This document shows positions 1 to 61,502 of a stretch of 64,000 nucleotides of DNA, piece after piece. Below the pieces are notes generated by a model. The model saw only the letters and a list, made by a program, of their open reading frames with translations, did no database searches and was not told the DNA's origin. Source of the DNA: an uncultured Gammaproteobacteria bacterium (GTDB taxonomy: Bacteria > Pseudomonadota > Gammaproteobacteria > CAWJOP01); the NCBI GenBank assembly GCA_963844535.1, contig CAWJOP010000002.1:668-64667 (forward strand). Reading direction: 5' to 3'. Position 1 is the first letter of the stretch. Each line of letters starts with the position of its first letter. The translations under genes and the position numbers were made by a program.

Positions 1-336
1 TCTTTTCGGATTCATCGAGACGAATTAAAACAGGGTGTAACACGAACCTCTGTACTTTCAAATGAAAAGATTCGAGGAATACGCTTTCAAATTAATGATA
101 ATACACTTAAGATTCTGGCAAGTAACGTAGTTCAAGAATATGCTGAAGAAGAACTTAACATAGAATATAAAAAAACAGACATGGAAATAGCATTTAATGC
201 TAATTATCTACTTGATGTATTAGCAGCTATTCGTTCAGAGTTTGTTGAGTTATGTTTTGCTTCAGCAGAACAAGCATTTTTAGTAAAAGATCCTGAACAG
301 CAAACATTTACTTACGTTTTAATGCCGATTTTATAG
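1..336 (+). CDS. dnaN: DNA polymerase III beta sliding clamp, C-terminal part; 5' end lies outside the window
   Basis: Frame 1 translates to ...IRFQINDNTLKILASNVVQEYAEEELNIEYKKTDMEIAFNANYLLDVLAAIRSEFVELCFASAEQAFLVKDPEQQTFTYVLMPIL*. This is typical of the DnaN C-terminal domain. It is followed by recF in the conserved dnaN-recF arrangement. Confidence 0.85.
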   Translation, partial: SFRIHRDELKQGVTRTSVLSNEKIRGIRFQINDNTLKILASNVVQEYAEEELNIEYKKTDMEIAFNANYLLDVLAAIRSEFVELCFASAEQAFLVKDPEQQTFTYVLMPIL

Positions 337-377
337 CCTGTATTATATTTAGTCTTATAAACTGTGCGTCTAAAAAA

Positions 378-509
378 GCCTGTTCAAAATCTCGCTAGGC
401 TGAGACAAAAACCGTGGATATCTAAGCACAGCATACATAGAAGTATATGAGCTGCGGAACGCAAGAAAATCACGGTTTTTGGCCAGTATAGTAGAGGTAT
501 TGAACAGGC
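378..509. repeat. MITE-like palindromic element, copy 1. Terminal inverted repeats are GCCTGTTCAAAATCTC / GAG(G/A)T(A/T)TTGAACAGGC, with an internal inverted repeat.
   Basis: ~85% identical to a second copy at 47272..47414. The ends are reverse complements of each other. An internal pair aaaaaccgtgg/cacggttttt lets it fold into a long hairpin. Confidence 0.6.
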
Positions 510-543
510 TTTAATCAACACCATAACCAATGAGTAGCGATAC

Positions 544-1626
544 ATGCTTGCATTTATTGAGGCAAAAGATTTTAGAAATTTTGCTCAATTTTCGATTGAG
601 CCATCGCCTCGGTTTAATATCATCTATGGGTTAAATGGTAGCGGCAAAAGTAGTGTCCTTGAAGCGGTTTATTTTTTAGCACTTGCTCGTTCTTTTCGAA
701 CACACTTAACTACCCATATCATTCAACACCAAAAAGCCTTAACTACAGTGTTTGGTACTATAAAAAATGATAGTAGTTTGAAGACCGCTGTGGGTATTCA
801 AAAAGCACGCAGTGGAGGAACAGAAATTCATATTAATGGAGAGCTTTCTAAAACTGCTATTTCTCTTGCTAAAATTTTACCCACAATTTTAATTAACCCT
901 GATAGCTATGAGTTAATTCATGGTGGACCTAATGCGCGGCGTCATTTTTTGAATTGGGGAACGTTCCACGTAGAACAATCTTTTATCTCAATATGGAGAA
1001 GTTTTCAGCGATGCTTAAAGCAAAGAAATACTGCTTTAAAAATGGAATTGCCTTTGAGAGAAGTACAGTTTTGGGATAATGAATTTGTCAATTTAAGTTT
1101 AGCATTAGATCAAATTTATTTGGGGTACGTCGAAAAACTAATTCCTGAAGTTCAAAGCATTATCGTTAGTTTAACTGATTTAGAGGGATTATCTTTGGAG
1201 TATTATTCTGGGTGGAGCCATCAGAATTCGCTGGAATACCTGTTAAAAAATAATAGCGCCAGAGAACAACAACAGCATTGTACATTGTTTGGACCGCATC
1301 GCGCAGATCTGAAAATAAATTTTAAAGGAGCTCCTGCACAAGAGATTCTTTCTCGTGGAGAGCAAAAATTATTGATTTTTGCTCTGCAACTGGCACAGGC
1401 AAAACTATTGAATAAAATGGTTGGTACGAAAGCCATTTATTTAATTGATGATATGGCGGCAGAATTAGACGCAAGCCATAGAAAAAAGATCGTTGATTTT
1501 CTTATTTCACTTGATGCGCAGGTATTTTTAACTTGTTTAGAACCAGAACAGTTATCTTTCGATATCCCATCAGAAGAGTTAAAGATGTTCTACGTGGAAC
1601 ATGGGGAATTTCAAATTAATATTTAG
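544..1626 (+). CDS. recF: DNA replication and repair protein RecF
   Basis: 360-aa ORF with the N-terminal Walker A motif GLNGSGKSSVLEA. It lies downstream of dnaN as expected. Confidence 0.9.
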   Translation: MLAFIEAKDFRNFAQFSIEPSPRFNIIYGLNGSGKSSVLEAVYFLALARSFRTHLTTHIIQHQKALTTVFGTIKNDSSLKTAVGIQKARSGGTEIHINGELSKTAISLAKILPTILINPDSYELIHGGPNARRHFLNWGTFHVEQSFISIWRSFQRCLKQRNTALKMELPLREVQFWDNEFVNLSLALDQIYLGYVEKLIPEVQSIIVSLTDLEGLSLEYYSGWSHQNSLEYLLKNNSAREQQQHCTLFGPHRADLKINFKGAPAQEILSRGEQKLLIFALQLAQAKLLNKMVGTKAIYLIDDMAAELDASHRKKIVDFLISLDAQVFLTCLEPEQLSFDIPSEELKMFYVEHGEFQINI

Positions 1627-5106: not shown

Positions 5107-5936
5107 AAAGTAGCTTCCTCGCGGCTTTTGCTAGTGAATAAACGTTTTATAATTCCTTTCTTTTCCGTTTTTAAGAATCGGAATGGGATTTCTTCTTCAA
5201 GAAGACGCCCGACAGCATCTTTGTAAGCAAGACCGGCATCACTGGTTTCATCAAGAATAACTGGAATTCCAGCATTGGATGCTTTCAGCACAGCTTGTGA
5301 CTCGGGAATAACACCAATCAACGGGATGGCAAGAATTTCTTGGACGTCGCCAACGCTTAGCATATCTCCTCGATCAACTCGAATTGGAGAGTATCGAGTC
5401 AAGAGTAGGTGTTCTTTGACTGGAGGGAGATTATTTTCAGAGCGGGATGTCTTGCTTGCTAAAATTCCCAAAATTCGATCAGAGTCGCGAACAGACGAAA
5501 CTTCAGGGTTGGTAACTACAATAGCCTCATCCGCAAAGTACATAGCCATTAGCGCGCCTTTTTCAATACCTGCAGGAGAATCGCATATAATGTAATCATA
5601 TTCTTTTTTAAGCTCTTGGATAACTTGTTCTACACCTTCTAGTGTTAGTGCATCTTTATCGCGAGTTTGTGAAGCAGGTAAAATGTAAAGATTTTCAACA
5701 CGCTTATCTTTGATAAGTGCTTGATTTAGATTAGCTTCCTTATGAATTACATTAACAAAATCATATACAACTCGGCGTTCACATCCCATGATAAGGTCTA
5801 GGTTGCGAAGACCAACGTCAAAGTCAATAACGACTGTTTTAAGCTTGCGGCTTGCAAGCCCAGTTGCTATTGCTGCACTCGTGGTGGTTTTTCCTACACC
5901 ACCTTTTCCTGAGGTGACAACGACTACTTTGGCCAC
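5103..5936 (-). CDS. minD: Septum site-determining ATPase MinD
   Basis: 277 aa with the deviant Walker A motif [12 protein letters not shown]. Confidence 0.9.
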
Positions 5937-6070
5937 GGGTATTCTCCAAAAGTTAATATAAATTTAAGTTTAAGTTGATTAAATAACGGTTTTAGCAATC
6001 GAAATTACATAAACCCCGTATCTTACGGCAATACTAGCATTTTTAACAATAGTAAATAACTATTATTTGG

Positions 6071-7195
6071 CTAAATTTTAGGATTTTCGTGCTTGCCTGG
6101 CAAATTTTGTATAGCTTCTTTGTCTGCAACATATCCTAGAGTTCCGCGGCGAATTTGATCTAATTCCATTGCCTCAAATAATGCTTGAAGATTGTCTTCT
6201 CCCAATCCTTCGTTACCTTTTCGTTGAATAATTTCAAAAAATATTGGACCTAACATGGGCTGAGTGAAAACTTGTAGTAACAATTTAGATTTAGGTTGAG
6301 TTGTTCCATCAATCATGATGTGGTCTTTTTTTAGCCTTGCTAAGTCTTCATCGTGATTAGGTAGACGTTTTTCAACCATTTCATAATAGGTATCGGGCAC
6401 TTCTAAAAATGATACGTTTTGAGCAAGTAATTTTTCAGCAGTTTCATAAATATTTTCGCTTGTTAAAGCAATGTGCTGCACGCCTTCTCCGTGATATTCA
6501 CGTAAGAATTCTTCGATTTGTGATTTGTCATCCGAAGATTCATTAAGTGGAATTAGAATTTTTCCACAGGGACTGCTTATTGCTCGACTTTTTAAACCTG
6601 TCATTTTGCCGCTAATGTTGAAATAACGAATTTCATGGAAATTGAATAACTTTTGGTAAAAGGCAGTCCATTTGTCTATAGTCCCACGATGAATATTATG
6701 AGCAAGATGATCGATATAAATTAAACCAACATCATTGTCTTTAACGCTAATCTTCTCTTCTTGCCAAGGAAGAAAATCATACTCATATAGATGAGTAGCA
6801 TTTTCGTGGTCTACTAAATAGACTAGGCTTCCGCCGACCCCATAAATTGCAGGAATATTAAATCCTTCTTCATCACCGTAATAAGGTTTTGCTCCTAGTT
6901 TAATAGCTCTTTCAAAGGCGTAATTTGCGTCTTTTACCTTAAACCCCATGGCAAAAATAGATGTTCCATGTTGTTTTGCAGATTCAGTGGCTAAGCTGTT
7001 TTGCTCTTGGCTAATAAAAAAATTAATGTGGCCTTGTTGATAGAGAGTGACCTGTTTGGCACGATGTTTTGCTACGGCTCTGAAGCCTAATTTTTTAAGT
7101 TGTAAATATAATTTTTCTGGGGCTTTAGAAGCAAAAACAACAAAATCGAGACCATCAGTTCCCATTGGATTTTCGCGCGTTAGGTGTTCACTCAT
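6071..7195 (-). CDS. hppD: 4-hydroxyphenylpyruvate dioxygenase (legiolysin-like)
   Basis: HPPD-like sequence (MGTDGLDFVVFAS..., two VOC domains). I place the start at the internal ATG at 7195 (MSEHLTRENPMG...), which has an AAGGAA ribosome-binding site 8 nt upstream. The listed ORF extends 34 codons further upstream (to 7297) without support. Confidence 0.8.
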   Translation of the reverse strand: MSEHLTRENPMGTDGLDFVVFASKAPEKLYLQLKKLGFRAVAKHRAKQVTLYQQGHINFFISQEQNSLATESAKQHGTSIFAMGFKVKDANYAFERAIKLGAKPYYGDEEGFNIPAIYGVGGSLVYLVDHENATHLYEYDFLPWQEEKISVKDNDVGLIYIDHLAHNIHRGTIDKWTAFYQKLFNFHEIRYFNISGKMTGLKSRAISSPCGKILIPLNESSDDKSQIEEFLREYHGEGVQHIALTSENIYETAEKLLAQNVSFLEVPDTYYEMVEKRLPNHDEDLARLKKDHIMIDGTTQPKSKLLLQVFTQPMLGPIFFEIIQRKGNEGLGEDNLQALFEAMELDQIRRGTLGYVADKEAIQNLPGKHENPKI

Positions 7196-30833: not shown

Positions 30834-30898
30834 ATATAGTTGATTTGCAAGCCTACTTTTCTAGGAATTTAGGCGTTTTGCAAATTTTGCTTTGCTAT

Positions 30899-30927
30899 CG
30901 ACGTGCCGCGACTTGTTCGCGGCATCC
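30899..30927. repeat. REP-like GC-rich palindrome CGACGTGCCGCGACTTGTTCGCGGCATCC
   Basis: Same family as the copies at 61258..61287 and 61386..61414 (inverted). Stem GCCGCGA/TCGCGGC. Lies between the ankyrin gene and the ATPase gene. Confidence 0.55.
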
Positions 30928-30976
30928 AGCCATCGATCTTGAATTAACAGCAAATCTCTATTTGTTAAATGGCAAA

Positions 30977-39406: not shown

Positions 39407-40042
39407 TTAGTCTATAGGGCCAATGATTTTACGTTTTAATGCATTAATTTTCTCAAATATATCAGTAATGTCTTGCTCAAAGTTTTGAGTTTCAAAGGTA
39501 GAGGTATTATTCGCTTTGGCGCTAACTAAAGCTTGTTTTAATAATCCATAGGTTTTTGTTAAATCTTCAATTGTTTTTTCAATTAAATTTCTGTCATTCC
39601 TTATTTGTATTAGTCTCTTAGAAGCTAAACGAAGTTTTTCTATGTTCCACTTTCCCTTAATCGTTTTCCCCTTCCAGGAAAAATCAGTTTGATCGATATG
39701 CTTTTCAATTTTATCTCTACGAGGGTTTAAAATAACTTCACATGAAAATTTTTGAGTATAGGTTGGCCAATAGTCTCCTTTATAAGCATTACAATCTCTA
39801 CAAGCATAAAGTAGGTTAGAATATTTTGCTGCTAATTTTGGGAATTTGCTTTTAGGTTTATAATGATCAATGTGAAAGGATTTTGAACCGCCAAGCTCTG
39901 GTTCGCGTGTTCCGCAATATACGCATCTATGGAAAAACTCTTCCCTAAGTTTTGATTTATAAATTTTATAATGATTGTCGTTTTTCATTCTCTTTTGCTT
40001 CAATGGGAGAAATTTCTTGCTGTGTGCTTGTAGAAGTATCAA
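39407..40042 (-). CDS. HNH-family nuclease (N-terminal HNH; C-terminal helical region)
   Basis: HNH motif CVYCGTREPELGGSKSFHIDHYKPKS...LLYACRDCNAYKG. The 5' end overlaps the upstream gene by 23-77 nt depending on the start chosen. Third gene of the three-gene minus-strand cassette. Confidence 0.65.
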   Translation of the reverse strand: MILLQAHSKKFLPLKQKRMKNDNHYKIYKSKLREEFFHRCVYCGTREPELGGSKSFHIDHYKPKSKFPKLAAKYSNLLYACRDCNAYKGDYWPTYTQKFSCEVILNPRRDKIEKHIDQTDFSWKGKTIKGKWNIEKLRLASKRLIQIRNDRNLIEKTIEDLTKTYGLLKQALVSAKANNTSTFETQNFEQDITDIFEKINALKRKIIGPID

Positions 40043-40568
40043 ACTGCGGAGCTCTTGTAGGAGTATCGAGTTCTGTAGGATTAATAAACGGGGGCTCAGT
40101 GGTATTTTTTGATTCTGTTGGAAGATAATGCGAATACTTTTTTAACTTTGCTTGAGCAAACAAAACAATCTTATTGAGTTCGTTTTCTTCAATAAAATTT
40201 TCTTTTTCAAGTTGATAAAGTAATAAATCTAGCTTATCAAGCTCAATGTCAATTTTAGCGAGCTTTCTTTTGTAATAAGGCAGAAAATATTTTAAGGGAT
40301 TATCCAGGATTTTATTGCGTGCTTGAATCAAAGGTTTTTTAAGGTTCATTATGTTTTCTATAATTTGTTCCTGGTTTTTCTCAAGTGTAATTGCAATTGA
40401 TGAAGATTCTAAATCACTTTTAGTTTGTTTAAGTAATGTGTCGGATTTTGATATGCTTAAACTAAAATCGTTTAACACCGGCTTTATTTTAGCAATATGT
40501 TTATCGGGATTCTGAAGTATCAGTTCTTTCGAGAGAGTGGTAGAAGCAAAATTGATAGAACTGGTCAT
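39966..40568 (-). CDS. Hypothetical coiled-coil protein with a Pro/Thr-rich C-terminus
   Basis: 200-aa ORF. Its start overlaps the stop of the upstream gene by 1 nt (TAATG). Predicted helical or coiled coil (LDKLDLLLYQLEKENFIEENELNKI). Confidence 0.45.
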   Translation of the reverse strand: MTSSINFASTTLSKELILQNPDKHIAKIKPVLNDFSLSISKSDTLLKQTKSDLESSSIAITLEKNQEQIIENIMNLKKPLIQARNKILDNPLKYFLPYYKRKLAKIDIELDKLDLLLYQLEKENFIEENELNKIVLFAQAKLKKYSHYLPTESKNTTEPPFINPTELDTPTRAPQFDTSTSTQQEISPIEAKENEKRQSL

Positions 40569-41323
40569 TATTCAACCTCCATTAGGTAACGTAGTTTTTC
40601 AGTAATGATCGTTTCAAAAACACTACTAAGTATATTATGTGCCTGAGTTGCAAGAGAAAGTATTTTGTTTTGTACAGGGCTAATTTCTGTGGTTGTATAG
40701 CAGTCAATATCGAGGATAAATCTGTTACCTATTTCTCCTGGTTTTAAAGCATCTGTCATGAATTTGGTTCGTATTTCAAAATTTTGATCACATTGATTTT
40801 TATCGGTTTCTATTTCATTAAGTAGTGTTAAGTCAAGACCTTTTAAATTGGAAAGCGAGGAAGGGATTTGAAATCCTAAACAAAAATAGTCAGAGAGATT
40901 AATTTTTTCTTCAGGAATTAAAAAGCTATTAATATACCTGGTTGCTACTCGTGTAACGTTAGAAGGTTTTGCTAAGTCAATGTAGGCATTAATTGCAGCA
41001 TAAATTGTTTCACTAAAGTTTTCCCAAGAGGTATATCTTAAACAATTAGCAACTACTATCCCTGGCCCAACTTGCAGTAATTCAGTGCCATCTTCTTTGC
41101 AGGCTTGAATTGAAGGTGCTTGTATAGGGGGAGTATTGTGAGAAGCGCCTAAAAAAACAGAAATGTGTTTAATATCCTGTTTTTTTGGATATAGTTGTCT
41201 TACTTTCTCAAAAAATTGGCCAGGAATGGCTGAATCAAAACCTGCATAATCAAACTTTACTTCAAAAATTGCTTCTTGAATTGCAGGTTTTTTATACTTG
41301 CGCCTAATTGTTTTATTGTTCAT
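40568..41323 (-). CDS. Uncharacterised protein resembling the TIGR04255 family
   Basis: 251 aa. N-terminal YKKPAIQEAIFEVKFD and the internal ...TRYINSF motif recall the TIGR04255 consensus. This assignment is from memory and has not been searched. First gene of the cassette. Confidence 0.45.
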   Translation of the reverse strand: MNNKTIRRKYKKPAIQEAIFEVKFDYAGFDSAIPGQFFEKVRQLYPKKQDIKHISVFLGASHNTPPIQAPSIQACKEDGTELLQVGPGIVVANCLRYTSWENFSETIYAAINAYIDLAKPSNVTRVATRYINSFLIPEEKINLSDYFCLGFQIPSSLSNLKGLDLTLLNEIETDKNQCDQNFEIRTKFMTDALKPGEIGNRFILDIDCYTTTEISPVQNKILSLATQAHNILSSVFETIITEKLRYLMEVE

Positions 41324-42827: not shown

Positions 42828-43360
42828 TAAGTGTCATTCCCGAGAAGACGCACTAGTGTCCTGGGATGCTGTATAATAAGCAAACGGGCTGTTTTTCTGT
42901 AAAAAAATAAAAATATACATCCCCTCTCCCAGTCCGAAAGCATAAAAAAATCTTCAAACTTTATTCTGGGAGAGGGCCAGGGTGAGGGAGATCGAATAAA
43001 TTTTGCTATCTCTTCTCTAGTTCAGTTAAAACGATATCTAGTATTTCGTCCACATGAAAGACTAATCATTTCTTGTCGCTTAAATTTATAGCCCTTTAAT
43101 CTTCTATTTCTTAAAAAGTACCACAATTGAGTTTCTGCTTCAGTTGCTTTTTTCTTAGTACCTTCGCATGATTTATTGGTTGTACCATTTTGTGGTTTCC
43201 CCTCACCCTGGCCCTCTCCCAGAATAAAGTTTGAAGATTTTTTTATGCTTTCGGGCTGGGAGAGGGGATGTATATTTTTATTTTTTTACAGAAAAACAGC
43301 CCGTTTGCTTATTATACAGCATCCCAGGACACTAGTGCGTCTTCTCGGGAATGACACTTA
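42828..43360. repeat. 533-bp foldback element: two 161-bp inverted repeats (1 mismatch) flanking a 211-bp non-coding spacer
   Basis: 42828..42988 is the reverse complement of 43200..43360, differing at one base (cagTccg vs cagCccg). Each arm also holds its own hairpin (CCCCTCTCCCAG...CTGGGAGAGGG). No ORF longer than 60 aa lies inside. Confidence 0.7.
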
Positions 43361-43590
43361 AATTATGAGGAAGGGGAACTAACCCACAAATTCTTTAAAC
43401 GAACCGTAAATTTCTTCGCAAAGTTTTTTTGAGCATTAAGAGAATGATTAAAAACTTTATATTCCCCTGCATCCTCAAGCATCACTGAAATATTTTCTCG
43501 AGGGTTGCTTAAAGATGATATCTTAAACTTAATTTAGATAAATACTGATCTAATTACAGTATTGTATAAAAATTATAAACATTCGGCCTG

Positions 43591-43800
43591 TTAAATATCC
43601 TTAAATTGATTGATGTGTAAATCGCCTCCAGGAAGCCGTTCTTGGCTCATATGTTGTGCTTGCCTCAGTTCTTGCAGCGGCATTTCTTTTAGCATGTGTT
43701 GCGTTTTAGTCCTCGCCGTTTTTTGAGCGGGCTTAGGCATTTTTTGCCGTAATAGTTTAAAAGGGTTACTCATTAATAAGTTCCTCCTCTTGTAAAGCAT
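43591..43800 (-). CDS. Small ORF (69 aa), possibly a truncated XRE-type HTH fragment
   Basis: C-terminal PLQELRQAQHMSQERL resembles the start of an XRE/HigA-type helix-turn-helix, but the ORF is too short for a full domain. Confidence 0.2.
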   Translation of the reverse strand: MLYKRRNLLMSNPFKLLRQKMPKPAQKTARTKTQHMLKEMPLQELRQAQHMSQERLPGGDLHINQFKDI

Positions 43801-43828
43801 TTACATAATGAGAGGTGTCATATTACTA

Positions 43829-45706
43829 TCAATTTTTTAAATAGGTATAACTATCTAATCCCTGACATAGTTCCTGTAAATAACTCGAGCGTTCTTGTTC
43901 GGTTAACTTCGCTTGGGTTAATTGTAGTTGATAAGATTCAATAAGATTTTTGCTGTCAAAATGCACATGACGCAATACGTCAGTGATGGTTTCTCCCTGG
44001 GTTGGATGGTGAAGTACATATTGATTATTTTCAGTCATTTGAACATGAATAGCATGCGTATCGCCAAATAAGTTGTGGATGTCACCTAAAATTTCTTGAT
44101 AAGCGCCTACTAAAAATATGCCGATAAAATAAGGGTTTTGCTCATCGTCTTGAGGTAGTCGTAGGGAGTTATCAAGCCCTTCTTCGTCAACGTAATGATC
44201 AATTCGTCCATCTGAATCGCAGGTAAGATCTTGCAGTATGCCACGTTCAGTAAGTGGTTGATTTAACTTAGAAAGAGGCAAGATAGGAAAGATTTGTTTA
44301 ATTGCCCAAATGTCTGGTAACGATTGAAATAAAGAAAAATTGCCAAATAATTTGTTAGCTAATTTTTCATTCAATGAGTCTAATAATTCCCGTTCAGCAC
44401 GATGGGTTGCACTCAGCGATTTGCGCACTTTTATACAGGTTGCTAGGTAAATTTCTTCTGCTTTTGCGCGCTGTTCTAACGTAATAAGACCATGAACGTA
44501 CATAGTTTGGGCTTCGTTAAAAAAGTGATAGGCGTCGTGATAAATCTCAATAGCAGAGCGATTAGCTAAATGATTATAACTTTCAAAAAGATCATGAATA
44601 ATGCGTGGCTCGTTGGCCGTTGGTGCAGTAATTTCTTTAGTAAGCAAAAGACGTTCGTTTTCAATAATATTAGTGACGAGCACTGCATGGTGCGCGGTCA
44701 TGGCTCGCCCTGATTCGGTGATGATTTGTGGATGTGGTAGCTTTTCTGCCACACAGATTTCTTTAAGTGTATGAACAATATTGTGAGCGTATTCTTCAAT
44801 GCTATAGTTCATTGAGCAGCTGCTACGCGATCTAGTTCCTTCATAATCAATTCCTAAGCCGCCGCCAACATCAATACATTCAATTGGCGCGCCGAGCTGA
44901 CATAGTTCAGCATAGTAGCGCGCACACTCGCGCATGCCGCGCTGAATATCGCGGATATTGGCAATTTGTGAGCCAAGGTGAAAATGGATCAGTTTAAGAC
45001 AATCAAGATAATTAGCAGTTTTAAGTTGCAAAATGGCTGATAAAACTTGCATGGGCGATAACCCAAATTTTGATTTTTCTCCACCGGTGTTTTGCCATTT
45101 GCCTACACCAATCGATGCGAGCCTTACACGGATGCCTAGGATAGGTCTAATATTTAGCTTGGCTGATTCTTCGAGAATAATCTTTAATTCAGATAGTTTC
45201 TCAATAATAAGATAAACACGATGACCCAGTTTTTGTCCAATGAGTGCAAGACGAATATAGGTTCTATCTTTGTAACCATTACAGACAACAATAGATTCAC
45301 CTGGAGTTGAAAGCGCTAAGACCGCCATAAGTTCAGGCTTACTGCCTGCTTCAAGGCCAATGCGATGCTGGCCATGATGAAGTAGTTGTTCTACCACAGC
45401 GCGTTGCTGATTCACTTTAATTGGATAAACCGCTTTGTATCCGCCTTGATAAGCATTTTCTTTGATGGCCTTATCGAAAGCGTTGCATAGTAGGTTGAAC
45501 TTTTCATTTAAAATATCATTAAAACGAATGAGTACTGGTAGTGATAATCCTAGGGTTTGGATGGCTTGAATCAGCTCAATAAAATCGATGCCTGGTTGAT
45601 TTTGTTTTCGGTTAGGGTAAGCAGTAAGGTGGCCTTTTTGATTGATGGCAAAAAATCCATCGCTCCAATGTGCGATGTTATATAGATTTTTATTGGCCTT
45701 GAGCAT
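43829..45706 (-). CDS. speA: Biosynthetic arginine decarboxylase
   Basis: Starts MLKANKNLYNIAHWSDGFFAINQKGHLTAY at the ATG at 45706, with a GAGGAAA ribosome-binding site. The PLP-dependent fold-III decarboxylase domain is present. The listed ORF start at 45784 adds 26 unsupported codons. Confidence 0.85.
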   Translation of the reverse strand: MLKANKNLYNIAHWSDGFFAINQKGHLTAYPNRKQNQPGIDFIELIQAIQTLGLSLPVLIRFNDILNEKFNLLCNAFDKAIKENAYQGGYKAVYPIKVNQQRAVVEQLLHHGQHRIGLEAGSKPELMAVLALSTPGESIVVCNGYKDRTYIRLALIGQKLGHRVYLIIEKLSELKIILEESAKLNIRPILGIRVRLASIGVGKWQNTGGEKSKFGLSPMQVLSAILQLKTANYLDCLKLIHFHLGSQIANIRDIQRGMRECARYYAELCQLGAPIECIDVGGGLGIDYEGTRSRSSCSMNYSIEEYAHNIVHTLKEICVAEKLPHPQIITESGRAMTAHHAVLVTNIIENERLLLTKEITAPTANEPRIIHDLFESYNHLANRSAIEIYHDAYHFFNEAQTMYVHGLITLEQRAKAEEIYLATCIKVRKSLSATHRAERELLDSLNEKLANKLFGNFSLFQSLPDIWAIKQIFPILPLSKLNQPLTERGILQDLTCDSDGRIDHYVDEEGLDNSLRLPQDDEQNPYFIGIFLVGAYQEILGDIHNLFGDTHAIHVQMTENNQYVLHHPTQGETITDVLRHVHFDSKNLIESYQLQLTQAKLTEQERSSYLQELCQGLDSYTYLKN

Positions 45707-45768
45707 AGTGTTTCCTCTATTAGGGCGGCTATAATGGTGCATCTTTTTTTGAAAAGCAAATACTCTAT

Positions 45769-47292
45769 ATGCAAAAACACTCACTTAAAAGTTTACTGAA
45801 TTCTTGGATTGAAATCGAAACAAAATATGATGGCTTGATTAATCATTTATCAATGGATAGTCGACATATCCAGCCAGGCGATATCTTTTTTGCTTTAGAA
45901 GGAGGGCAAAAAGACGGTCGCATGTTTGTGCAGCAAGCTGTTGATAAGGGGGCTATAGCTGTTTTGTGTGAGAAAAAAGATCAGGCTGATAGAGCTTCGG
46001 TATTGATTAATATCAATGACAAAAAAATCCCGATGTTTTTTATTGAAAAACTTGAGGAAAAAATCGGTGAAATTGCCGCGAAATTTTATGATTACCCTGC
46101 TAAAAAACTCACGGTGATTGGCGTAACAGGAACCAATGGAAAAACTTCATGTACACAATGGATAGCGAAAGCATTAAATTATTTCAATATACCATGTGGC
46201 GTGATAGGGACATTAGGATATGGGCTCCCTGGCGATTTAAATAGCGCTGAATATACCACGCCGTTTGCTATTGATGTCCAAAGAATACTTGCTGATTTTT
46301 GTGCGAAAGGCGCTAAAGCAGTGGCTATGGAAGTTTCTTCACATGGATTGGTGCAGCATCGTGTTGCTGGGGTAGAATTTAGCTTGGCAACTTTTACTAA
46401 TTTAACCCACGATCACCTCGATTATCATGGCAGTTTAGCTAATTATGCAGCAGCGAAAAAGCAGTTATTTAATTGGCCTTCATTGCAGCAAAGCATTTTT
46501 AATTTAGATGATTTTTATGGACGACTCTGGTTTGTCGAGTATAAAAACCAAAAGCCTTGTTATGGTTATTCATTACAGCCTGATATATGCCAATTATTTT
46601 CTAAAGATTTTTTGGTTTATACACCGAGTTTTTCTTTTTCAGAAAAAAGTATTGAAGCAACGGTGGTTACTCCATGGGGCGAAGGACTGCTCAGTAGCCC
46701 TTTATTGGGCAAATTTAATTTAAGTAATTTGTTGGTGGTTTTAACTAATTTATGTCTTATGGGCGTTGCATTTACAGATGCGCTTTCAGTGATTCCGCTA
46801 TTAGATAGCTTGCCGGGGCGTATGCAAGTGATTAGTGATGAAGGAAAACCTACGGTGGTAATTGATTATTCACATACCCCAGATTCGCTTTTGCATGCAC
46901 TACAAAGTTTACGCGAACATTGCACTGGTAAGCTTTGGTGTGTATTTGGTTGTGGTGGCGATCGAGACAAAACCAAACGACCCATAATGGGAAAAATTGC
47001 TGAGCAACATGCAGATTATGTGATAATTACCGATGATAATCCTCGACACGAAAATCCAAAATCGATTGTTGCGGATATATTGTTAGGTCTTGCTATTGAT
47101 TCGGCGGTAGTTATTGAACACAATCGGCGTTTGGCAATATTGCATGCACTTACTAGCGCAAATGCTGGAGATATTGTATTGATTGCTGGCAAGGGACATG
47201 AGCGCTATCAACAAATTGGCGATGAAAAAATCCCCTTTAGTGATGCAGTTGAGGCACAATTGGTGCTTAAAGCCTGTTCAAAATCTCGCTAG
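45769..47292 (+). CDS. murE: UDP-N-acetylmuramoyl-L-alanyl-D-glutamate--2,6-diaminopimelate ligase
   Basis: 507 aa. P-loop GVTGTNGKTS. DNPR motif (TDDNPRHE). The last 7 codons and the stop lie inside MITE copy 2. Confidence 0.9.
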   Translation: MQKHSLKSLLNSWIEIETKYDGLINHLSMDSRHIQPGDIFFALEGGQKDGRMFVQQAVDKGAIAVLCEKKDQADRASVLININDKKIPMFFIEKLEEKIGEIAAKFYDYPAKKLTVIGVTGTNGKTSCTQWIAKALNYFNIPCGVIGTLGYGLPGDLNSAEYTTPFAIDVQRILADFCAKGAKAVAMEVSSHGLVQHRVAGVEFSLATFTNLTHDHLDYHGSLANYAAAKKQLFNWPSLQQSIFNLDDFYGRLWFVEYKNQKPCYGYSLQPDICQLFSKDFLVYTPSFSFSEKSIEATVVTPWGEGLLSSPLLGKFNLSNLLVVLTNLCLMGVAFTDALSVIPLLDSLPGRMQVISDEGKPTVVIDYSHTPDSLLHALQSLREHCTGKLWCVFGCGGDRDKTKRPIMGKIAEQHADYVIITDDNPRHENPKSIVADILLGLAIDSAVVIEHNRRLAILHALTSANAGDIVLIAGKGHERYQQIGDEKIPFSDAVEAQLVLKACSKSR

Positions 47293-47414
47293 ATTGAGTG
47301 AAAAAAGCTTGATTTTCGAGAATCGCAGCGCAGCATACACAATAGAGGTATGTGAGCAGCGAATCGCAGAAAATCAAACTTTTTTCGCCAAGATAGTAGA
47401 GATTTTGAACAGGC
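47272..47414. repeat. MITE-like palindromic element, copy 2, in the murE-murF junction
   Basis: Ends with GCCTGTTCAAAATCTCGCTAG ... GAGATTTTGAACAGGC. Related to copy 1 at 378..509. Supplies the murE C-terminus (…ACSKSR*). Confidence 0.6.
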
Positions 47415-47437
47415 TTTTAACGAACTAAGTATTAAGA

Positions 47438-55780: not shown

Positions 55781-55811
55781 AGAGTTAGTCTGTATGCGAC
55801 GATGTTTTAGC

Positions 55812-55933
55812 TTGTCATGCCAGCGCAGGCTGGCATCCAGAAATATTCAACATGGTTACTGGATTGCCGCGCACATCCTGTGCTCGCAATGACGGTCTTA
55901 CGAAGGAATATGCTGGATGCCAGCCTGCGCTGG
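55812..55933. repeat. 122-bp inverted-repeat element: 29-bp arms CTTGTCATGCCAGCGCAGGCTGGCATCCAG / CTGGATGCCAGCCTGCGCTGGCATGACAA around a structured ~63-bp core
   Basis: Arms are exact reverse complements. Each arm holds the palindrome GCCAGCGCAGGCTGGC. The core contains a GCACATCCTGTGC hairpin and a 20-mer also found at 13541..13560. Confidence 0.6.
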
Positions 55934-55970
55934 CATGACAAATTTAAAAAATTATCGTGTATAAATAAAT

Positions 55971-61162: not shown

Positions 61163-61173
61163 ACTGATCTTTG

Positions 61174-61287
61174 CCTACGTGCCGCACTACAATACCTGCG
61201 TGCTGCACTACGATGCCTACGTGCCACACTGCAATGCCTACGTGCCACACTGCAATGCCTACGTGCCGCGGCTTGTCCGCGGCATCC
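61174..61287. repeat. Four tandem 21-bp repeats (CCTACGTGCC(A/G)CACT(A/G)CAATG) running into a REP-like palindrome CCTACGTGCCGCGGCTTGTCCGCGGCATCC
   Basis: Units at 61174, 61195, 61216 and 61237. The palindrome is at 61258..61287. An inverted partner lies at 61386..61440. The array starts 12 bp after the stop of the 1224-aa gene and ~220 bp upstream of gyrB. Confidence 0.65.
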
Positions 61288-61385
61288 AATTGAAGGAAGC
61301 AGAATACACTCATAAATTGCGAAGCTAAATTCACAATGAGTGACTCGTATGAAGAGCTTCGCTGTTAATTCACGATTGATGACTA

Positions 61386-61414
61386 GATGCCGCGGACAAG
61401 CCGCGGCACGTAGG
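61386..61414. repeat. REP-like palindrome, inverted copy (GATGCCGCGGACAAGCCGCGGCACGTAGG)
   Basis: Reverse complement of the palindrome at 61258..61287. Followed by TATTGTAATGCGACGCATAGGCAGTG, which is the inverse of a 21-bp unit. Confidence 0.55.
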
Positions 61415-61502
61415 TATTGTAATGCGACGCATAGGCAGTGAGTCAACGAAAACTTCGCAAAATACAGTGCAATCAGTGTATAATATCTACTCATTAAATT
61501 AG

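Follow-up and report, generated by a model that had tools for sequence, protein, structure and literature searches.

Several families of short palindromic elements have been described in bacteria. The Correia elements (CREE) of Neisseria duplicate a TA target upon insertion. Small IS5-family elements of the IS427/IS1031 subgroups have 'GAG' ends and create 2-4-bp or 3-bp TNA duplications. For some palindromic repeats, effects on RNA have been reported: Correia RNA hairpins are cleaved by RNase III, and ERIC elements alter mRNA stability in Yersinia and have been connected with RNase E (PMC10969869). Two MITE families are known from Coxiella burnetii, namely QMITE1 of approximately 400 bp with a 21-bp inverted repeat and QMITE2 of approximately 190 bp with 7-9-bp direct and 23-29-bp inverted repeats (PMC5896051).

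Here we characterize two palindromic repeats in a window of 64,000 nucleotides (the whole stretch of DNA that was analysed) from an uncultured gammaproteobacterium. One lies in the spacer between dnaN and recF and the other is fused to the 3' end of murE. Our data make it very probable that both are copies of a MITE whose mobility depended on an IS5-family DDE transposase acting in trans, one of the small two-ORF type (NF033580). The landing of copy 2 in the final murE codons is well supported, but as an event it is ordinary.

Two copies of different age

The copies, their ends and the neighbouring genes are as follows.

1..336, + strand: dnaN (3' part), next to copy 1 on its upstream side (the ortholog in contig L137 has DNA_pol3_beta domains)
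373..375, no strand: left flank of copy 1, AAA, the degenerate partner of the TAA at 512-514
376..511, + strand: copy 1, 136 nt, in the dnaN-recF spacer, the older copy
376..393, + strand: left terminal inverted repeat of copy 1, AAGCCTGTTCAAAATCTC
494..511, - strand: right terminal inverted repeat of copy 1, AAGCCTGTTCAATACCTC, with 2 mismatches to the left repeat
512..514, no strand: right flank of copy 1, TAA, a putative target-site duplication with the TNA pattern common to the family
544..1626, + strand: recF, the downstream neighbour, starting 32 nt past the last base of copy 1
45769..47292, + strand: murE, whose last 6 codons (ACSKSR) and TAG stop (47290-47292) are read from copy 2
47267..47269, no strand: left TTA of the target-site duplication of copy 2, from sequence
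47270..47416, + strand: copy 2, 147 nt, in the final murE codons, the younger copy
47270..47287, + strand: left terminal inverted repeat of copy 2, 0 mismatches to the motif
47399..47416, - strand: right terminal inverted repeat of copy 2, the perfect complement of the left repeat
47417..47419, no strand: right TTA of the target-site duplication of copy 2, from sequence and the empty site in contig L135
47420..47446, + strand: remnant of the former murE 3' end (ELSIKSE... codons), now untranslated spacer, aligning with L135 11501-11550
47447: ATG of murF, 154 nt past the new murE stop

An earlier note on this DNA had reported the two copies at these sites, and the sequence confirms both. It had set their boundaries at 378..509 and 47272..47414; the locations hold, but comparison with other family members places the true ends 2 nt further out on each side. 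The copies are 75% identical over 138-150 nt (blastn), and no third copy was found in the 64-kb window by blastn with a word size of 7. Both end in 18-nt terminal inverted repeats (AAGCCTGTTCAAAATCTC), which are perfect in copy 2 and carry 2 mismatches in copy 1. When up to 3 mismatches were allowed, GCCTGTTCAAWATCTC matched 7 times in the window compared with 1.4 ± 1.1 times in shuffles, and the best four matches were the four ends of copies 1 and 2. The first base is A at all four termini in the window and G in other family members, which suggests that the A-first ends of both window copies mark a local subfamily. On the + strand, each copy folds into a single long hairpin, with -54.1 kcal/mol (z = -7.8) for copy 1 and -72.7 kcal/mol (z = -13.5) for copy 2, both against dinucleotide shuffles. 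The terminal inverted repeats and the hairpin over the whole element, as previously noted, are thus borne out by sequence and folding. No reading frame is consistently open across family copies, and the element holds no transposase gene.

A comparison with close relatives indicates that copy 2 is a recent insertion. The 90% cluster of the window's MurE has a second member (P0121, 97% identical), which is carried by contig L135 from JGI metagenome 3300009787; this contig is collinear with the window at ~97.5% DNA identity. It is exactly without copy 2: blastn alignments stop at 47270 and restart at 47419, and the unmatched positions 47271-47418 comprise copy 2 and one TTA of the duplication. 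The empty site in L135 reads CTCAACG, compared with CTTA[MITE]TTAACG in the window (junctions ...CAATTGATGCTCAACGAACTAAGT... and ...CAATTGGTGCTTA[element]TTAACGAACTAAGT..., respectively), and the 3-bp duplication TTA/TTA brackets copy 2 in the window. Two further relatives with 70% MurE identity (L122 and L123) are also without copy 2; between murE and murF they have only 65 and 22 nt, respectively.

The insertion changed the end of MurE. In the window the protein ends in ...LVLKACSKSR* (...EAQLVLKACSKSR*), and ACSKSR and the stop lie inside the element, in agreement with the earlier proposal that copy 2 supplies the murE tail. In L135 the protein ends in ...LNELSIKSEQS*, and its stop codon TGA shares bases with the following ATG (ATGA). 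Copy 2 insertion swapped the ten MurE codons NELSIKSEQS for KACSKSR*. The murE remnant behind copy 2 differs by 1 nt from L135 (GAATATCATG vs GAACAATCATG), the window having since become short of 1 nt in the former murE end relative to L135. A pre-insertion murE end running 25 codons into murF was considered and rejected, as the relative's sequence gives NELSIKSEQS*. In an alignment of 13 MurE proteins conservation stops at ...EAQLxL, which places the rewritten tail in a variable part of the protein. The case is of interest in that a MITE remodelled an essential cell-wall operon: the C-terminal tail of MurE was rewritten, the stop/start overlap was lost and the lineage survived, showing the tolerance of the MurE tail and of murE-murF coupling.

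Two observations concern the assemblies around this site. In L135 (11551-11693), the sequence diverges totally from the window's murF after 7 codons (MNISLKK) of the gene past murE and up to the contig end, which could reflect a further insertion, variation in the population or chimerism of the assembly. The 4-kb Logan contig L121 (equivalent to window 43331-47337), assembled independently from the same organism, stops exactly where the copy 2 hairpin has its apex. This break is typical of graph assemblers at palindromes and calls for caution with copy counts in short-read assemblies.

Copy 1, in contrast, is an old insertion. Contig L137, also from JGI metagenome 3300009787 and with a RecF 98% identical to that of the window, has the same 207-nt dnaN-recF spacer with the orthologous copy 1, whereas the spacer measures 75 nt in the 70% relatives L138 and L139, where copy 1 is absent. 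The presence of copy 1 in a 98% relative and the absence of copy 2 from a 97% relative place the insertion of copy 1 before that of copy 2; the 2 inverted-repeat mismatches of copy 1, its imperfect AAA/TAA duplication and its weaker fold match this greater age. Between copy 1 and its L137 ortholog, 9 of 136 positions differ, compared with 49 of 3192 outside (odds ratio 4.5; Fisher p = 5e-4), and some of the changes break hairpin pairs. Copy 1 is decaying, and it diverges ~4-4.5 times faster than its flanks.

The gene past recF (1623-2219, - strand) is an ortholog of the IcmQ gene (Dot/Icm type IVB secretion) in L137 and L138. The position of this gene beside recF marks the host as a Legionellales-type bacterium.

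The window contains further repeats and islands. At 22137-22301 there is a 165-nt palindromic MITE-like element, possibly TA-flanked; its 26-nt inverted repeats (TAGGGCCTGTTTACATTTGATTTACC) are perfect, a further inverted repeat lies inside it, a solo end is located at 21549-21571, and its GCCTGTT motif resembles the inverted repeat of the IS5-type MITE copies. A third repeat family consists of a 144-nt palindromic element with 36-nt arms (TTTTAGCTTGTCATGCCAGCGCAGGCTGGCATCCAG; 55805-55948) and a related half-copy near 23146 (23135-23185). Positions 42828-43360 form a 533-nt palindrome with 174-nt arms (96% complementary), which in L135 (6503-7666) is replaced by other DNA with a 387-aa ORF that has no Pfam match. 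Tandem repeats of 21 nt (TGCCTACGTGCCRCACTRCAA) occupy 61172-61440, with an inverted copy ~100 nt away and a related 64-nt stretch 30 kb upstream (30896-30959). Diverged direct repeats of 50-100 nt at spacings of 111-237 nt (15298-16015) probably belong to a repeat protein on the - strand. Also absent from L135, where a tolC-like OEP joins nhaA directly, is a ~2-kb block of three genes on the - strand (39407-41323) that looks like a small accessory or defence island. It encodes proteins of 211, 200 and 251 aa, the first of which is Cys/His-rich (CxxC ... HIDH ... CxxC) and, from motifs judged by eye, a putative HNH-nuclease-like protein.

Family members and the shared terminal repeat

We scanned metagenomes with a family-specific 22-mer and obtained 10 contigs with G+C contents of 36-40%, 3 of them from the same metagenome as L135. 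In seven contigs the members are full-length (143-145 nt). They have the core in common (for example ...GATTTTCGAGCATCGTAGCGCAGCATAC-loop-TATGTGAGCAACGAAGCACAGAAAATC...), their inverted repeats begin with G and their flanks follow the TNA pattern; target duplications in the family read TAA, TTA or TCA. Internal-deletion derivatives of 57 and ~83 nt are found in two other contigs, and the remaining one contains a nested insert. Two extra copies on the same ~11-kb contigs came from a profile search; two copies each are present on the ~11-kb contigs L133 and L127. Altogether, metagenome contigs contain at least 10 further family copies. In viral contigs, two scans gave no match to the family-specific ends.

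The contexts of these copies include positions past rnr, ahead of rpsB and between cmk and rpsA, and many copies overlap a stop codon or lie 1-11 nt from one. This proximity is explained by the TNA target, which includes TAA and TGA. In contig L140 (901-1041), a 141-nt member together with its TCA duplication makes up 48 codons in frame within an MFS transporter gene and adds 48 residues, EPVQNLAMPSPKDLIFEHRSAAYEVCEQRSTDNQGFLARIVEILNRL and a duplicated S; this contig was the sole match of a search with concatenated element-encoded peptides, a search unsuited to counting copies. The TNA rule accounts for elements that seem 'fused' to gene ends, and the spurious tails and small ORFs that they bring along matter for annotation.

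The window has only two copies, both in operon spacers, as might be expected of ordinary conserved intergenic sequences, for example shared regulatory palindromes, that were never mobile. The earlier note had named such a pattern, two copies only that align as conserved spacer in relatives, as the one that would speak against its proposal of a MITE family. This pattern is ruled out. Relatives have exact empty sites and the target duplication is present, which refutes the explanation, and copies occur in unrelated contexts (past rnr, ahead of rpsB, in the cmk-rpsA spacer and in the MFS gene); we give it practically no chance. The assignment to a MITE family, in contrast, is upheld by the inverted repeats, the target duplications, the exact empty sites and the members elsewhere.

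The inverted repeat GAGCCTGTTCAAAATCTC with a 3-bp TNA duplication also ends many other MITEs in several phyla. We scanned one genome per species with the 17-mer AGCCTGTTCAAAATCTC, and at least 120 contig stretches matched. Among the matches listed, the exact 17-mer bounds repeated elements in spirochaete and Oscillospiraceae bins, Granulosicoccaceae, Vandammella and Brachymonas; further carriers among them are Pseudomonas, Chromobacterium, several Xanthomonadales, candidate-phyla bacteria, a Waddliaceae bin and a Coxiellaceae bin. The base ahead of the 17-mer is almost always G in these listed matches, with T-N-A before that. Pairing of the ends resulted in at least ~70 elements, 79-400 bp long, most of which have the same trinucleotide (TAA, TTA, TGA or TCA) to their left and right.

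The same ends are found on larger elements with a transposase gene. In L014 (Mycoavidus), a 1.3-kb element (5317-6617) has the same inverted repeat and a TAA duplication, and its two ORFs match DUF4096 and DDE_Tnp_1 (Pfam) as well as the NF033580 IS5 family transposase (NCBIfam transpos_IS5_3), a type which we take to be that of the IS427/IS1031 subgroups in ISfinder terms. L092 carries a related insertion sequence, the left end of which runs off the locus. Its right-end repeat AGATTTTGAACAGGCTC is closely similar to the family repeat, and the transposase stop is located inside it (...AAA AGA TTT TGA ACAGGCTC, followed by TTA). A stop codon inside the inverted repeat may help to explain why the repeat is so highly conserved. 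A relative of ~850 bp on a Xanthomonas plasmid, annotated as IS5 family transposase, has the ends GAACCTGTTCACGATCT and TAA on both sides. Related insertion sequences are probably present in ISfinder; a literature search by sequence did not find the inverted-repeat string printed in any open-access paper. In the 64-kb window, no IS5-type transposase was found. For specialists, the interest may lie in one exact 18-bp repeat that spirochaetes, firmicutes, proteobacteria, candidate-phyla bacteria and chlamydiae have in common on hairpin MITEs whose cores are unrelated.

Whole-length palindromy and a proposed RNA function

Alignment of 10 full-length copies yielded a consensus hairpin of 56 pairs, with 96% of cells paired. 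Changes on both sides were found in 16 of the 56 pairs, compared with 7.2 ± 1.6 in column shuffles (0 of 500 reached 16) and with only 2-5 pairs in slid controls. The arms thus stay complementary while the sequence changes. Forty unrelated MITEs were analysed as well; they have the same inverted repeat, their TNA duplications are perfect, and they too form hairpins beyond their repeats (median inner-arm complementarity 0.69; median z -5.6 against shuffles keeping the inverted repeats). Whole-length palindromy looks like a trait of the element class and not of a host regulator. Because of these 40 hairpin MITEs, the decay of copy 1 and the lack of copy 2 in L135, the hairpin is not evidence of a host function of the two window copies. 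We infer that the structure is kept in lineages that are still multiplying and that single insertions then decay. Transposition competence, tolerance at insertion or copying from arm to arm might be the reason. That the hairpin is functionally required, either for a cruciform- or hairpin-dependent step in mobilization by the DDE transposase or as a portable RNA processing or attenuation module, seems rather unlikely to us. If true, the former would be a step outside the textbook DDE mechanism, and the latter an RNA module tolerated or exploited by hosts in operons such as dnaN-recF and murE-murF.

The earlier note had derived a role as terminator, attenuator or small RNA from the essential genes next to both copies, and one may imagine that the host took over the elements as RNA regulators, for instance as a partial terminator or attenuator, a 3' stabilizer of the preceding mRNA or an RNase III site uncoupling the two genes. 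The compensatory changes that keep the hairpin would fit this, and there are precedents in the RNase III cleavage of Correia hairpins and the effect of ERIC on mRNA stability in Yersinia (PMC10969869). The inner stem is flanked by conserved A5 and T5 tracts in the 10-copy alignment, resembling a bidirectional terminator, yet this stem has interruptions and is long; it might act weakly like a terminator in both directions. Consensus scans found neither a sigma-70-like promoter nor an intrinsic terminator inside either copy, and Rfam 15 gave 0 matches in the window at gathering scores and, at E < 10, chance-level matches to hairpin microRNA-precursor models only. An efficient terminator ahead of murF and the cell-wall cluster would moreover be harmful. 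In 8 of 10 copies the + strand gives the better fold, and the consensus hairpin has 36 G.U cells compared with 9 A.C cells, but this excess is not proof of selection at the RNA level, since the structure was derived on the + strand and a transcription-linked C-to-T bias on the non-template strand would point the same way. With neighbours checked by Pfam, 7 of the 8 informative copies are oriented in the sense of the co-directional upstream gene and one, between cmk and rpsA, is antisense (p = 0.07); a bias of ~11:1 obtained before rested on unverified ORFs and was discarded, the ratio of 7:1 after the Pfam check not being significant. Against a host regulator stand also the 97% relative that is wholly without copy 2, the divergence of copy 1 at 4.5 times the rate of its flanks with some pair-breaking changes, and the unrelated MITEs with the same repeat in many phyla, which are palindromic as well. 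The position at gene ends is more simply explained by the TNA target, which includes the stops TAA and TGA. The regulatory role is therefore not supported as it was put forward, and we assign it a low probability.

A different mode of mobility was also considered. As the whole element is a hairpin, it could resemble the REP/BIME palindromes that are spread by RAYT proteins (IS200/IS605-like, Y1), or move by another hairpin-dependent single-strand mechanism; transversion pairs make up about half of the double changes, and copying from arm to arm would easily explain them. However, the 18-bp inverted repeats come with a 3-bp TNA duplication, which Y1 elements are not known to make, the same ends lie on either side of an IS5-family DDE transposase gene, and ~140 nt is far above the size of REP (a 20-40-nt imperfect palindrome with neither inverted repeats nor target duplication). 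This alternative is thus very improbable, and mobilization in trans by an IS5-family DDE transposase is the reading that we prefer.

Proposed mechanism and comparison with described elements

In the proposed mechanism, the transposase would recognize the 18-bp terminal inverted repeats (G/A)AGCCTGTTCAAAATCTC and insert the element at a TNA trinucleotide, which becomes duplicated. Copies would accumulate at or near stop codons, as TNA includes TAA and TGA and is frequent in AT-rich gene ends. Copy 1 would represent an old insertion in the dnaN-recF spacer that is now decaying. Copy 2 would be a recent hit on the murE tail, by which the ATGA stop/start overlap was broken and murF came to lie 154 nt from the new stop. 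Co-transcription with the operon would yield an extended hairpin in the RNA, whose consequences for processing or read-through, if any, would presumably be side effects.

The two copies have the properties of a prokaryotic MITE: they are 136 and 147 nt in size, with inverted repeats, target duplication and presence/absence polymorphism. They also have those of an IS5-derived element: their ends match those of an autonomous insertion sequence that encodes an IS5-family DDE transposase, and the target duplication is a TNA of 3 bp. Counting against the model are the absence of an IS5-type transposase from the 64-kb window, the imperfect duplication of copy 1 (AAA/TAA) and the A-first termini, and the covariation (16 double-change pairs) and the G.U excess would also fit selection on RNA structure.

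Among the described elements, Correia elements are similar in being MITEs of ~100-155 bp with inverted repeats that are located in operon spacers and are co-transcribed. They differ in that their inverted-repeat sequence is unrelated and that the Correia promoter and IHF features were not seen in the window copies. The ERIC/IRU repeats of enterobacteria share the palindromic structure (~127 bp) and the location at gene 3' ends; their sequence is different, and ERIC has no known link to a transposase or TNA duplication. The Rickettsia palindromic elements (RPE) are found in frame within genes, like the family member in the MFS gene of L140. In contrast to RPE, the window copies lie in a spacer and at the murE 3' end and are not in-frame inserts, and the inverted repeats and target duplications of this MITE family are clear and link it to an IS5-type transposase. 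Coxiella burnetii has QMITE1 and QMITE2, likewise MITEs in a Legionellales-type host, some overlapping gene 3' ends and some yielding small RNAs (PMC5896051). Identity of the window copies with either family was rejected on size, inverted repeat and direct-repeat length, and no sequence relation was seen.

The closest counterparts are the IS5-family insertion sequences of the two-ORF type and the MITEs derived from them. The window elements are unlike the insertion sequences in that they are without a transposase, measure 136-147 nt, form a hairpin over their full length and have A-first ends; with these insertion sequences and their derived MITEs they share the same repeat GAGCCTGTTCAAAATCTC and the same 3-bp TNA duplication.
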